Positions 40,547 through 44,173 of a stretch of 44,173 nt of DNA are shown here, one piece after another; position 1 is the stretch's first letter, and every line of letters begins with the position of its first letter. This DNA is from Planctomycetota bacterium (lineage in GTDB: Bacteria > Planctomycetota > Planctomycetia > Pirellulales > UBA1268). Where the stretch lies: NCBI GenBank assembly GCA_027592945.1, contig JAQCJP010000003.1:1-44173 (forward strand), in the 5' to 3' direction. A model generated the notes under the pieces. The model saw only the letters and a list, made by a program, of their open reading frames with translations, ran no database searches and was not told the DNA's origin. A program made the position numbers and the translations under genes.

Positions 40547-41299
40547 TCAGCCCGAGCGGGTCTTGAGATCAGCCAGGCCGCCGTCGACACCGAGAACCTG
40601 TCCGGTGATCCAGTCCTGGGCCGGGTCGAGCAGGAAAGCGATTGCCCGGGCGACGTCCTCTGGTTCCCCGAGCCTGCCGAGCGGATGCATGGCGATTGAC
40701 GCCTTCTCAGCCAGTTCACTGGCGACCAGTCCGGCGGTCAGCGGGGTGCGGACGAGGCCGGGGGCGACGGCGTTAAACCGGATCTTCTGGCGGGCGTAGG
40801 TGGCGGCCGCGGAAAGCACGAGGCCAATGATCCCGGCCTTTGCCGCGGCGATCGCCTCATGGTTGGCCAGCCCGATTCGGGCGGCCGCACTCGAAACGAG
40901 CACGACGGAGCCCCCGCCTGCCTTGAGCAGCCGGCCGGCCGCCCGCACGCAGCCAAAGGCGGCGGTCAAATTGGCCGCAAGCGTCGCCTGCCACTCGGCG
41001 GTGGTAGTCAGATGGGCCGGCTTGAGCAGGAGCGATCCGGCGCAGCAGGAGATTCCCGTCAGGCCGCCGAGCTGCTCGGCGGCGGCGTCGGCGCAGGCAT
41101 CGATCGCATCAGGATCGGCAGCATCGACCGCCGCCCAACGTCCGTCCAGTTCGCCGGCAGTCGCCTCGAGTTTCGCGGCATCACGACCCGCCAGAAAGAC
41201 CCGCCCGCCGCCGGCGACGATGCTCCGGGCCACGGCCGAGCCGATGCCGCCGGCCCCACCGATGATGAAGACCCGCTGCGGGGCGGCTGCGGTCATCAA
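40547..41299 (-). CDS. SDR family oxidoreductase
   Basis: GGAGGIG, NAVAPG, HPLGRLG.PED, ITGQVLGVDGG. Confidence 0.9.
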   Translation of the reverse strand: MMTAAAPQRVFIIGGAGGIGSAVARSIVAGGGRVFLAGRDAAKLEATAGELDGRWAAVDAADPDAIDACADAAAEQLGGLTGISCCAGSLLLKPAHLTTTAEWQATLAANLTAAFGCVRAAGRLLKAGGGSVVLVSSAAARIGLANHEAIAAAKAGIIGLVLSAAATYARQKIRFNAVAPGLVRTPLTAGLVASELAEKASIAMHPLGRLGEPEDVARAIAFLLDPAQDWITGQVLGVDGGLADLKTRSG

Positions 41300-42303
41300 A
41301 GCCAGTTACCCACGGTCTGCTCGAGCTTCGCGTCCGCAGCGAGGCTGCGGAGCTTTTCCATCGCCCGTCCCTGAATCTGCCGAATCCGCTCCTTGCAGAC
41401 GCCCATCTGGCTGCCGAGTTCGCGGAAGGTTCGGGGCGGCTTGCCATCGAAGCCAAACCTGGCCACGACGATCCGCCGTTCCCGGGGCTCGAGTTCACCG
41501 AGAAATCCGGTGAACAACTCCTTGAGTGTCGCGATCTGCTCGCTCGAGCAGTAGTCGTGCTCCGGTTCCTGCTCGGGCCGATCCTTGAGCGCCTCGTCGT
41601 CGGCGATAAACCGCTTGCGAAACTGCCGGCCCCGTTGGGAGAGCCGATAGAAGTGACGCTGGATGGCGTAGGTGGCATACGTGCTGAACCGATTGCCGAG
41701 GGCGAAGTTGAACTTTTCGACCGCCCGCATCAGCGCCAGATTGCCCTCACTGACCAGCTCATCAAACGACCACGTGGGGTCGACGAACTTCTTCGCGATC
41801 GAGACAACCAGCCGAAGGTTGGAGGTGATCAGGATCGCCTTGACGGTTTCCGCCTCTGCGAGAAAGCCCTCGACAAGTTCGATCTGTCGCAGCGAGGCGC
41901 GGCGCCGGTCGTAGCGGCCCCGGGTTGTGGCAGCCTTGAACTTCAGCCAGTTCATCCGCCGGAAATAAAACTGCTCTTCCTCTTTCGTCAGGAGCCGGTT
42001 CTGGTAGAGGCTGGCGATGTAGGGAGTCATCCCGGAGCTGCTCGACGGAGCCGCACCGGACCGTTCCAGCGGAACCGCAGCCTCGGCAGGAGGCATCGTC
42101 GCCAGCCGCTCCGCGTTGCTCTTGAGAAACTCCCGGCACGGGATGTAGTCGATCTCTCGGGAGAAGAGCGCGGCTCGCCGAGACCGCACCTCGGCGAGTC
42201 GCTTTTGCCGGGCAGCCTCGCTGCGGCGAGCGGATGACGAACCCCGCTTCCCGTCAGACTTCTGTTTCGATGCAGCCTTGCGAGGCTTGGCGATGGCGAT
42301 CAT
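41296..42303 (-). CDS. sigma-70 family RNA polymerase sigma factor (regions 1.2, 2, 4; region 3 largely absent)
   Basis: LLTKEEE, SNLRLVVSIAKKF, EGNLALMRAVEKF, RFSTYATY, TFRELG..MGVCKERIRQIQ. Confidence 0.92.
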   Translation of the reverse strand: MIAIAKPRKAASKQKSDGKRGSSSARRSEAARQKRLAEVRSRRAALFSREIDYIPCREFLKSNAERLATMPPAEAAVPLERSGAAPSSSSGMTPYIASLYQNRLLTKEEEQFYFRRMNWLKFKAATTRGRYDRRRASLRQIELVEGFLAEAETVKAILITSNLRLVVSIAKKFVDPTWSFDELVSEGNLALMRAVEKFNFALGNRFSTYATYAIQRHFYRLSQRGRQFRKRFIADDEALKDRPEQEPEHDYCSSEQIATLKELFTGFLGELEPRERRIVVARFGFDGKPPRTFRELGSQMGVCKERIRQIQGRAMEKLRSLAADAKLEQTVGNWL

Positions 42304-42414: not shown

Positions 42415-43242
42415 TCAGCCCCCTGCCACCGAGCAACCGCGACGGCGGAGCCGCGACAGGGGCACGACGGCCGCCGCCGCCAGGGCAGCCAGGGCGAGCG
42501 TGGAAGGCTCGGGGACAACCTGGAAGGTGTAGACGGCCGAGCCGCTCACCTGGGTCGCCCCGTTGAGGCCAGCGGCCTGGATGCCGACCTGGTAGAGGCC
42601 CGGCTCGGTGAAGAAGAGCGTCCGGTGAATGTGGCCGTCGGCCGGCACGGAGAAGGAGTCGCCCGTGAAGGTGGTGTCGCCATCCTGGAGCACCCAGAGC
42701 TGGGTCGAGCCGTCGTAGATCGCCATCGTGCCGCCGGCTGGCGCGGTGAAGGACGTCGGCGTGAAGGTGACGTTGCCGAAGTTCTCGCCGGCAAAGCCCT
42801 CCTCGGTGGCCCAGCCGAGGAAGGGGGTATCGTAGTGGTCGGCGTCGGCACCAGTGGGCGAGAGGACCCAGAGCGGACTGCCGACCGGCACGCCCAGAGC
42901 GTCGTATTGGGAGCCCGTGAAGTCGTAGCCCGTGGCCAGGCCGGTCCAGAAGCCCGTGGGGTTGTCGATCCGGCCCAGGTCGGCCGTCTGCGGGATGCGG
43001 ATCGTGACATCGGCCGGCTCGAAGGGCTGGCCGTCGGGATCGGTGACCACGACCCCGTCGATCGTCGCCCCCTGCTCGGCGTGGACCTCCATCTCGAAGG
43101 CCGTGGGATCGAGCGGGTCGTAGGCAACGCCAATGTCGCCGTGGCCCGCCGACCAGACTTCTCCGCGGGCGGTTGAGATGGGCAGAACTGCCAGTGCGGC
43201 CGGCACAAGCAGGGCTGGAAGCATCAGGCGACGGATCGTCAT
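42415..43242 (-). CDS. PEP-CTERM surface protein with His motifs (choice-of-anchor M/TIGR03769-like, putative metal binding)
   Basis: Signal peptide; GHGDIG; GHIHR..FTEPGLY; VVPEPSTLAL + TM + RRR; SD GGAG before ATG 43242. Confidence 0.85.
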   Translation of the reverse strand: MTIRRLMLPALLVPAALAVLPISTARGEVWSAGHGDIGVAYDPLDPTAFEMEVHAEQGATIDGVVVTDPDGQPFEPADVTIRIPQTADLGRIDNPTGFWTGLATGYDFTGSQYDALGVPVGSPLWVLSPTGADADHYDTPFLGWATEEGFAGENFGNVTFTPTSFTAPAGGTMAIYDGSTQLWVLQDGDTTFTGDSFSVPADGHIHRTLFFTEPGLYQVGIQAAGLNGATQVSGSAVYTFQVVPEPSTLALAALAAAAVVPLSRLRRRGCSVAGG

Positions 43243-43275
43243 AGCGGTTTTCTCCATGCAAGAAGGAAAGGTCGC

Positions 43276-43306
43276 GAATGTGCAAATGCAACACATTTGC
43301 GTATTC
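43276..43306. promoter_or_regulatory. second Fur/Zur-like box within a 13-bp imperfect inverted repeat
   Basis: GAATGTGCAAATG-CAACA-CATTTGCGTATTC; contains TGCAA-N5-TTGCG at 43287-43301. Confidence 0.5.
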
Positions 43307-43324
43307 TGGCGGCCCCCTCGAGAA

Positions 43325-43343
43325 TTTGCAATAGTATTGCAAA
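43325..43343. promoter_or_regulatory. perfect 9-1-9 AT-rich palindrome, Fur-family (probably Zur) operator
   Basis: TTTGCAATA-G-TATTGCAAA in a GC-rich genome, about 80 bp upstream of the PEP-CTERM gene. Confidence 0.7.
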
Positions 43344-43369
43344 AAAGAGGGTCGCTCTTCGGCCTGCCG

Positions 43370-44080
43370 TCAGGCAGCCCTTTTTCGTGACCGCCGGACG
43401 ACACGCCAGAGTCCGCCGGCTGCCGCGATTCCCATCAGCCCAAGCGTCGAGGGCTCCGGCACCGGGGCGAAGGCGACGTCGACCATTGCCTGGACACCCG
43501 CGGGCACGTTGCTGGCGAAGCCCTGCTCGAAGGTGACCAGAAAGGGCTCCGAGGTGGTGAAGCCCGTGCTGCCTGCACCTGGTCCGAGCGTCAGAACGAC
43601 TCCGTAGAGGCCGGTCGTCGCCCCGTCCGGCAGCGAATAGTCGATGTGTTCGTGGAAGGCGCCGGTGCTGGGCACCGAGGTGATCACAAAGCCCGGCGCG
43701 CCGGCGGTGTCGCTGCCGGTGATCGTCGCCGAACGGACGCCCTGGTAGTCGAGGGTCATCGCGGCCGGAGGGGGAGCCAGCGCAAAGCCGTCCCAGTAGA
43801 GAAGCTGCTTGGCGAAATCGACTCGGATCGTGGCCCCTGCAGGGAAGGTGCCCGCCAGGCTGTCAAAGCCGGGGCTTTCAGTGGTGTAGGGCGTGGCCAG
43901 CGGCATGAGTCCCTCGTCGAAGACCCGCCCGGCATACTCGCCGGACCAGGTGCCCCCGCTCGTCGCGATCGGCCCGTCGGCCGTCGGTACGGTCAGCAGG
44001 ATGTCTCCCTGATGCTGGGCCGCCGCCGGGATCGCCGGGACGAGCAGGCACGACAGGATGACGAAGGGAAGGCACCGCAT
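43370..44080 (-). CDS. PEP-CTERM surface protein with His motifs
   Basis: SD GAGGTGA; signal peptide ...PAAA|QHQGDI; FHEHIDY...TGLY; PVPEPSTLGL + TM + RRSRKR. Confidence 0.87.
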   Translation of the reverse strand: MRCLPFVILSCLLVPAIPAAAQHQGDILLTVPTADGPIATSGGTWSGEYAGRVFDEGLMPLATPYTTESPGFDSLAGTFPAGATIRVDFAKQLLYWDGFALAPPPAAMTLDYQGVRSATITGSDTAGAPGFVITSVPSTGAFHEHIDYSLPDGATTGLYGVVLTLGPGAGSTGFTTSEPFLVTFEQGFASNVPAGVQAMVDVAFAPVPEPSTLGLMGIAAAGGLWRVVRRSRKRAA

Positions 44081-44110
44081 GGGATCACCTCGCAACACGT
44101 AAAACACGAT

Positions 44111-44173
44111 TCACTGGGCGGGCTTGGCAAACTCGAAACCCGTTTCGACCCACTCCCCGATCTGCGACTCGGG
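44111..44173 (-). CDS. C-terminal fragment of an upstream CDS running off the right edge
   Basis: Open frame PESQIGEWVETGFEFAKPAQ* ending 30 bp before the next gene; family not assignable. Confidence 0.45.
   Translation of the reverse strand, partial: PESQIGEWVETGFEFAKPAQ

Follow-up and report, generated by a model that had tools for sequence, protein, structure and literature searches.

The window analyzed here, a stretch of 44,173 nucleotides, is a whole contig (G000:C92) of a 3.56-Mb genome (G000) that is 94.9% complete. Its right end carries the following features.

42415 to 43242, minus strand: P0001, 275 amino acids, with a hydrophobic N-terminus, a choice-of-anchor M domain, and a PEP-CTERM tail (42442 to 42516).
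43287 to 43301, strand not applicable: proximal box, TGCAA-N5-TTGCA with 1 mismatch, 45 nucleotides 5' of the P0001 ATG.
43325 to 43343, strand not applicable: distal box, a perfect 9-1-9 palindrome with its core at 43327 to 43341, 40 nucleotides from the proximal box.
43370 to 44080, minus strand: P0002, 236 amino acids, with a hydrophobic N-terminus, an unnamed beta-sandwich domain, and a PEP-CTERM tail (43391 to 43465).
44111 to 44173, minus strand: end of a DUF1559 prepilin-type gene, comprising the last 20 codons and the stop; this is the first gene of the operon, and the contig end cuts off the rest.

A first-pass annotation, made from the letters of the window, had described two tandem PEP-CTERM reading frames with a set of shared motifs, and all of these (GHGDI, GHIH, QHQGDI, FHEH, GLY, and the VPEP tails) are in place. 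It had also expected the locus to continue past the right edge, and the final 63 bases are indeed the end of a DUF1559 gene. The full DUF1559 gene, with a one-mismatch box on its 5' side, was found in a 99%-identical contig (L107) and in an 88%-identical one (L109). Among the neighbors predicted beyond the edge, DUF1559 was present, while Zur, COG0523, and ZnuABC were not; in contigs 88 to 99% identical to the window, the order is the DUF1559 gene, the one-mismatch box, and then a sulfatase gene. No transporter was found past the DUF1559 gene in the close relatives' continuation, nor was any linked ABC transporter found in or adjoining the operon in L105 to L109. Contig L109 spans from the window to contig C82 of the same genome, with a gap of about 1.1 kb. 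On the minus strand, no terminator-like site was found from P0001 to the sigma-70 gene (41296 to 42303), so read-through into that gene is possible; a scan for sigma-70 promoters gave no match. Sixteen DNA runs of estuarine, marine, aquatic, or oyster origin each contain at least 78% of the words of the window; four RNA runs yielded no more than scattered short contigs and do not bear on expression. The planctomycete origin proposed in the first-pass annotation is supported, as the homologs' source names indicate Planctomycetota/Pirellulales, with other taxa in some record titles.

The gene content of this locus varies. In the metagenome contig L107 (1129 to 1872, compared with window positions 42516 to 43443), P0001 and both boxes are absent, and from the PEP-CTERM codons onward the body of P0002 carries a tail resembling that of P0001. 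This arrangement suggests that the cassette may have been lost through recombination between the tails; the deletion form was not among the joints in 4 DNA runs. The slot 5' of the conserved sigma-70 gene holds boxed cassettes that differ between species of the genus (compared in L063, L064, L070, L088, L090, L091, L094, and L101), consisting of DUF1559 with a P0002-type gene, an anchor-M gene, or both, or of a longer His-rich DUF1559 gene alone. The same module was seen in L110, L111, L112, and L116, titled Candidatus Kuenenia or Chitinophagaceae; as L112 and L116 have a Pirellulales-type gene order, these titles look like mislabels.

Both PEP-CTERM proteins had been linked to the choice-of-anchor M family. 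This is correct for P0001, which matches NF038134 over model positions 2 to 184 of 184 (70.5 bits against a cutoff of 55), but not for P0002, which gave no match to NF038134 at an E value of ≤0.1 and profile-profile probabilities of 0.9% and 3.6%. P0001 also matches TIGR03773, TIGR03769, and TIGR03772, in each case below the cutoff. Its motifs GHGDI (H34 and D36) and GHIH (H204 and H206) form an HxD at 34 to 36 and an HxH at 204 to 206 that lie 167 amino acids apart, in agreement with the HxD/HxH pattern, in which about 150 amino acids are bracketed. H34, D36, H204, and H206 were present in all 93 aligned homologs, most of them close ones. The AF2 model of P0001 is a beta-sandwich (pLDDT, 89.8). 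Elsewhere, anchor-M domains are fused to NHL/ScyE-like propellers, and a P0002-family protein of 490 amino acids has a second domain before its tail (L053:7665-9272, L054:9714-11654, and L042:12360-13829, listed together).

P0002 matches Pfam and NCBIfam models in its tail only and has no named domain. Its motifs are QHQGDI (H23 and D26), PGF (70 to 72), and FHEH (H143 and H145), a variant of the HxD/HxH arrangement with HxxD at 23 to 26 and HxH at 143 to 145, spaced by 116 amino acids. The P0002 family comprises 348 representatives (clusters at 50% identity) at an E value of ≤1e-10, with the tail adding to the scores. After 151 sequences were examined and 41 dropped (40 N-terminally incomplete and 1 without a domain match), 110 were kept in the alignment; H23 was conserved in 103, D26 in 108, H143 in 107, and H145 in 108. 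A lack of His conservation in homologs would, according to the first-pass annotation, have counted against its proposal; the His/Asp residues of both proteins proved near-invariant. The tails of the 110 family members vary, with 53 PEP, 14 dockerin-like, and 43 other. The AF2 model of P0002 is likewise a beta-sandwich (pLDDT, 89.5). In the ESM Atlas, residues 22 to 205 gave a feature match of 0.91 to a "metallo-mystery pair four-Cys" cluster, which is a lead only, since mature P0002 has no Cys.

Both proteins match the PEP-CTERM model PF07589 above the cutoff, and G000 has one exosortase gene. A hydrophobic N-terminal segment, a PEP motif, a hydrophobic stretch, and a basic tail, as in exosortase substrates, were found in each, although the tail of P0002 is only moderately hydrophobic; judged by their residues, both N-termini are signal-like. 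The two had been called exosortase anchored. The exosortase is there, but the anchoring is uncertain, because ZepA also has this tail and yet is set free into the medium (PMC10957091). Among the 86 PEP-CTERM reading frames of the genome, only P0001 and P0002 have an HxH within 120 amino acids of the PEP motif, and a regular expression for the full signature, itself built from those two, returned the same pair. As had been stated, they have little overall similarity; BLASTP aligned their tails only. Homology of the mature domains was looked for with BLASTP and three hhalign comparisons, which gave either the tail alone or a weak HxH..G.Y match, and this candidate relationship was rejected. As the mature domains align neither with each other nor with ZepA, the shared signature is real but is perhaps convergent or very ancient, and the two domains may have a remote common ancestry. 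The GLY common to both is presumably the tyrosine corner of immunoglobulin-like sandwiches.

The intergenic repeats had been described as two Fur-type palindromes; palindromes they are, but their form, TGCAA-N5-TTGCA, is not that of the classical GATAATGAT-type Fur box. The 3.56 Mb of the genome contain 71 perfect 9-1-9 repeats, of which the one at 43325 to 43343 is the sole repeat with ≤40% GC, and its core is the only perfect TGCAA-N5-TTGCA of the genome. When the genome was scored with a matrix derived solely from sites of relatives, the two boxes took the top two places (32.9 and 23.6 bits), and the next site scored 16.2 bits. The boxes of relatives prefer C and G at inner positions. The pair is spaced 38 to 41 nucleotides apart in all 11 related loci checked, and the proximal position holds a perfect core in the close relatives L105, L106, and L109. 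For the 19 other one-mismatch cores in G000, no clear metal genes were seen on the 4 contigs inspected.

Perfect sites were enriched in 36 genomes of the genus, with 60 sites compared with 9 for a reversed-pattern control. Outside the family, 24 genomes showed only a mild excess of the perfect core over the control. The surroundings of all 60 genus sites were fetched and tallied by hand. P0001- or P0002-type PEP genes or their DUF1559 leader follow 22 sites, a COG0523 gene is first or second downstream at 15, other DUF1559 genes follow 5, and DUF58/transglutaminase or DUF1826 genes follow 4; the remaining 14 have no assigned target gene. Because the genomes compared are related, these counts do not represent independent events.

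The first-pass annotation had proposed a zinc-type regulon, and the company that the box keeps in other genomes supports this. A box was found within 600 nucleotides upstream of 12 of 16 ZigA-like genes (11 of them perfect); for one of the ZigA-like matches the upstream DNA was limited to 2 nucleotides, and for two the box precedes the adjoining upstream gene. ZepA genes are rare, with 3 in 61 genomes (G040, G044, and G047; 222 to 252 bits on NF040463, for which the cutoff is 75) and none in 37 genomes of the genus. All three ZepA clusters share the palindrome, which is perfect and directly upstream of the gene in two and has 1 mismatch at the head of the cluster in the third; two of the three ZepA genes adjoin a P0002-family gene. 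The complete genome G047 has five perfect sites, three of which lie within a single 5-kb stretch together with ZigA, ZepA, a Fur-family gene, and two homologs of P0002. As the box also precedes zinc-starvation genes of relatives, a zinc-repressed metal-scavenging module is likely. It is highly improbable that unrelated surface genes carry these palindromes and motifs by chance: the core has only 10 specified bases and almost a quarter of the genus sites are without an assigned target, but the perfect core is unique in the genome, its place and spacing are kept, and the His/Asp residues are retained across distant homologs. That reading is largely refuted by site enrichment, His/Asp conservation, the 11 loci, and the association with ZigA-like genes.

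Two further gene arrangements accompany the box. In a second boxed unit (L065:7996-14164, L077:1538-7677, and L216:1834-9032), genes for a COG0523 protein and a WD40 protein are divergent from those for a DUF58 protein, a transglutaminase-like protein, and an ArsP-type permease; where this permease is present, it is a candidate for the importer. At L041:10871-15022, in G017, the PEP module is separated from a boxed ZigA gene by genes of the DabAB-type inorganic carbon transporter.

The Mur/Fur-alpha box has a similar TGCAA...TTGCA core, and the module could serve a metal other than zinc (Mn, Fe, Co, Ni, or Cu), with a sensor of the Mur/Fur-alpha type or of a different type, which we consider unlikely. 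The Mur/Fur-alpha box is a 19-bp palindrome and its defining targets are Sit-type and Nramp genes (PMC1698941); however, no box was found within 600 nucleotides upstream of ZnuA/TroA(Sit)-type genes (0 of 30, these being 30 of 55 matches) or Nramp genes (0 of 15). Subgroups of COG0523 serve various metals (PMC2770081), whereas the boxed full-length COG0523 genes score 574 to 625 bits on the ZigA model (cutoff, 600), with CobW at about 143 bits. His/Asp sites are not zinc specific, and cupredoxin-type domains are among the weak fold matches of P0001 (Z ≤ 5.9); against this, ZepA, which is zinc specific (PMC10957091), shares the box, and an MntR/DtxR-type regulator is present separately.

That MntR/DtxR-type gene and two Fur-family genes are the metal regulators of G000. 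Of the Fur-family genes, one is at C36:9343-9846; the other, G000:C17:8682-9155, shares 46.8% identity with the regulator that has a box in G047. Among its best 30 orthologs, 5 have a perfect box nearby and 25 do not; 11 have one with ≤1 mismatch (control, 1). Genes for ZigA, for ZIP transporters, and for a P-type ATPase are among the neighbors of these orthologs. This gene is likely the repressor, and its context in related genomes appears to favor it. Neither Fur-family protein of G000 passes the Zur models, so that "Zur" is a functional inference here. The genome has one ZnuA/TroA-type ABC operon (ABC gene on C122) and a single ZIP gene, neither of which has a box, and gave no TonB-receptor, ZigA, or ZepA match at its 94.9% completeness.

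The leader of the operon has the features common in planctomycete DUF1559 proteins, namely, a prepilin-type N-terminus, an N-terminal DUF1559 (PF07596) match, and an H-X9-DG-like C-terminus. It differs from them in belonging to a short subfamily under the box that has its own conserved H64 and D188-H189-x-H191 (DHxH). Among 32 DUF1559 genes hand-picked as leaders of P0002-family or anchor-M genes, H64 was present in 30 and D188, H189, and H191 in 31 each; nine more DUF1559 genes are listed but uncounted, two of which flank anchor-M genes and lack the motif. DHxH was found in none of 27 other prepilin-type reading frames of G000, one of which has a DHxxxH variant. All three operon products thus repeat one logic, an early His and a later HxH. 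A similar trio without a box, in which a Cys-rich membrane protein is joined by a PEP-CTERM protein bearing Met/His and by a DUF1559 protein with the DHxxxH variant, was seen at G000:C253:5651-8094 (L215) and L051:9589-17522; it is possibly a module for another metal.

Several known systems resemble the operon in part. ZepA (All3515) of Anabaena PCC 7120 is zinc specific and has a signal peptide and PEP-CTERM tail, a predicted beta-sandwich, a conserved His site, Zur-type control, and COG0523 and Fur-family gene neighbors (PMC10957091). The box is common to the ZepA genes described above; however, the suggested kinship with All3515/ZepA was not supported, as P0001 and P0002 have no NF040463 match and no H-X2-9-H-F/Y-H motif and fail to align with ZepA profiles (probabilities, 3.3% and 0.2%). 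The predicted Desulfovibrio ZUR consensus, ATGCAACNNNGTTGCAT, has an identical TGCAA-N5-TTGCA core but precedes znuABC-zur (PMC545781), whereas here the box precedes surface-protein, DUF1559, and COG0523 genes and not an ABC transporter. No description of the box or operon in planctomycetes was found in the literature searched; the figures and supplements of PMC10957091, with zepA upstream motifs, may bear on this and lay outside the search.

ZnuE, ZnuF, ZnuG, and CmrA of Corynebacterium diphtheriae have HxD and HxH bracketing about 150 amino acids, as P0001 does, and a C-terminal sorting tail (PMC12445094). Zinc regulation is also common to both, here read from the box. We infer ZnuE, ZnuF, and ZnuG to be choice-of-anchor M proteins. 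In these zinc-regulated proteins, the HxD/HxH motif is predicted to form a pocket and was required for function in growth assays; deletions of znuF or znuG alone left growth unaffected, His-to-Ala mutants still shifted with Zn, and a need for the His residues was not demonstrated in vitro (PMC12445094). The planctomycete proteins differ from ZnuE/F/G and from the anchored-repeat ABC system (TIGR03769/03772/03773) in having an exosortase tail instead of a sortase or membrane anchor, a two-membrane host, a DUF1559 partner, and no linked ABC transporter.

An improbable alternative is that the proteins respond to zinc without feeding uptake, as surface storage or buffering or as adhesin-like beta-sandwiches with a structural metal site. 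ZnuF and ZnuG seem to sequester Zn, and storage has been proposed for them (PMC12445094), but induction under scarcity would suit capture better than storage, and mutants lacking ZnuE or ZepA grow worse under limitation (PMC12445094, PMC10957091). No relatives with solved structures were found by sequence, and fold searches with the two proteins gave generic matches (Z ≤ 6.9 and, for P0001, Z ≤ 5.9), the best being pilins, adhesin lectin domains, and cadherins; at Z < 8, however, a match reflects a common fold only. The 99%-identical contig L107 does entirely without P0001, and no co-regulated importer was found in G000, in its close relatives, or among the ZnuA/TroA-type and Nramp genes checked; both would suit storage or adhesion.

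Collectively, the genes and boxes point to a probable Zur-type-repressed zinc-capture operon of the DUF1559 gene, P0002, and P0001; the central idea of the first-pass annotation is upheld, with support added by the genome comparisons. The DUF1559 prepilin-like gene leads the operon, P0002 is second and P0001 third, and their products are likely to bind zinc outside the cytoplasm. When zinc is sufficient, a Zur-type repressor would occupy the box that precedes the operon and the pair that precedes P0001, silencing an internal promoter before P0001 together with the operon; when zinc is short, the genes would be expressed. The PEP-CTERM proteins would then be exported and cleaved by the exosortase, and would either stay on display or, like ZepA, be released; each is predicted to hold one Zn ion through four residues, namely, its first His, its Asp, and the two His of HxH. 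The weakest point of this scheme is the transfer to the cell, for which the inner-membrane DUF1559 protein with its His triad is a candidate acceptor. Another reading, which seems rather unlikely, is a relay in which two unrelated PEP-CTERM beta-sandwich zinc catchers pass the metal to a His-triad, pilin-like DUF1559 protein in the inner membrane, with neither ZnuABC nor a TonB receptor under the same control. The operon would work like ZepA and ZnuE, to which it would add its DUF1559 partner and the box found in planctomycetes.

These findings give planctomycetes a testable zinc-starvation regulon, with a box, a candidate repressor, and target genes. They place the large unnamed P0002 family and a DUF1559 subfamily in metal handling and add exosortase-sorted members from estuarine bacteria to the HxD/HxH proteins that Corynebacterium is known to have. 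How zinc crosses the planctomycete envelope is a question raised by the absence of a co-regulated importer. If the relay were true, it would be previously undescribed and would provide the first substrate for a DUF1559 subfamily, suggesting that DUF1559 and PEP-CTERM gene pairs may be ligand-capture modules in general.
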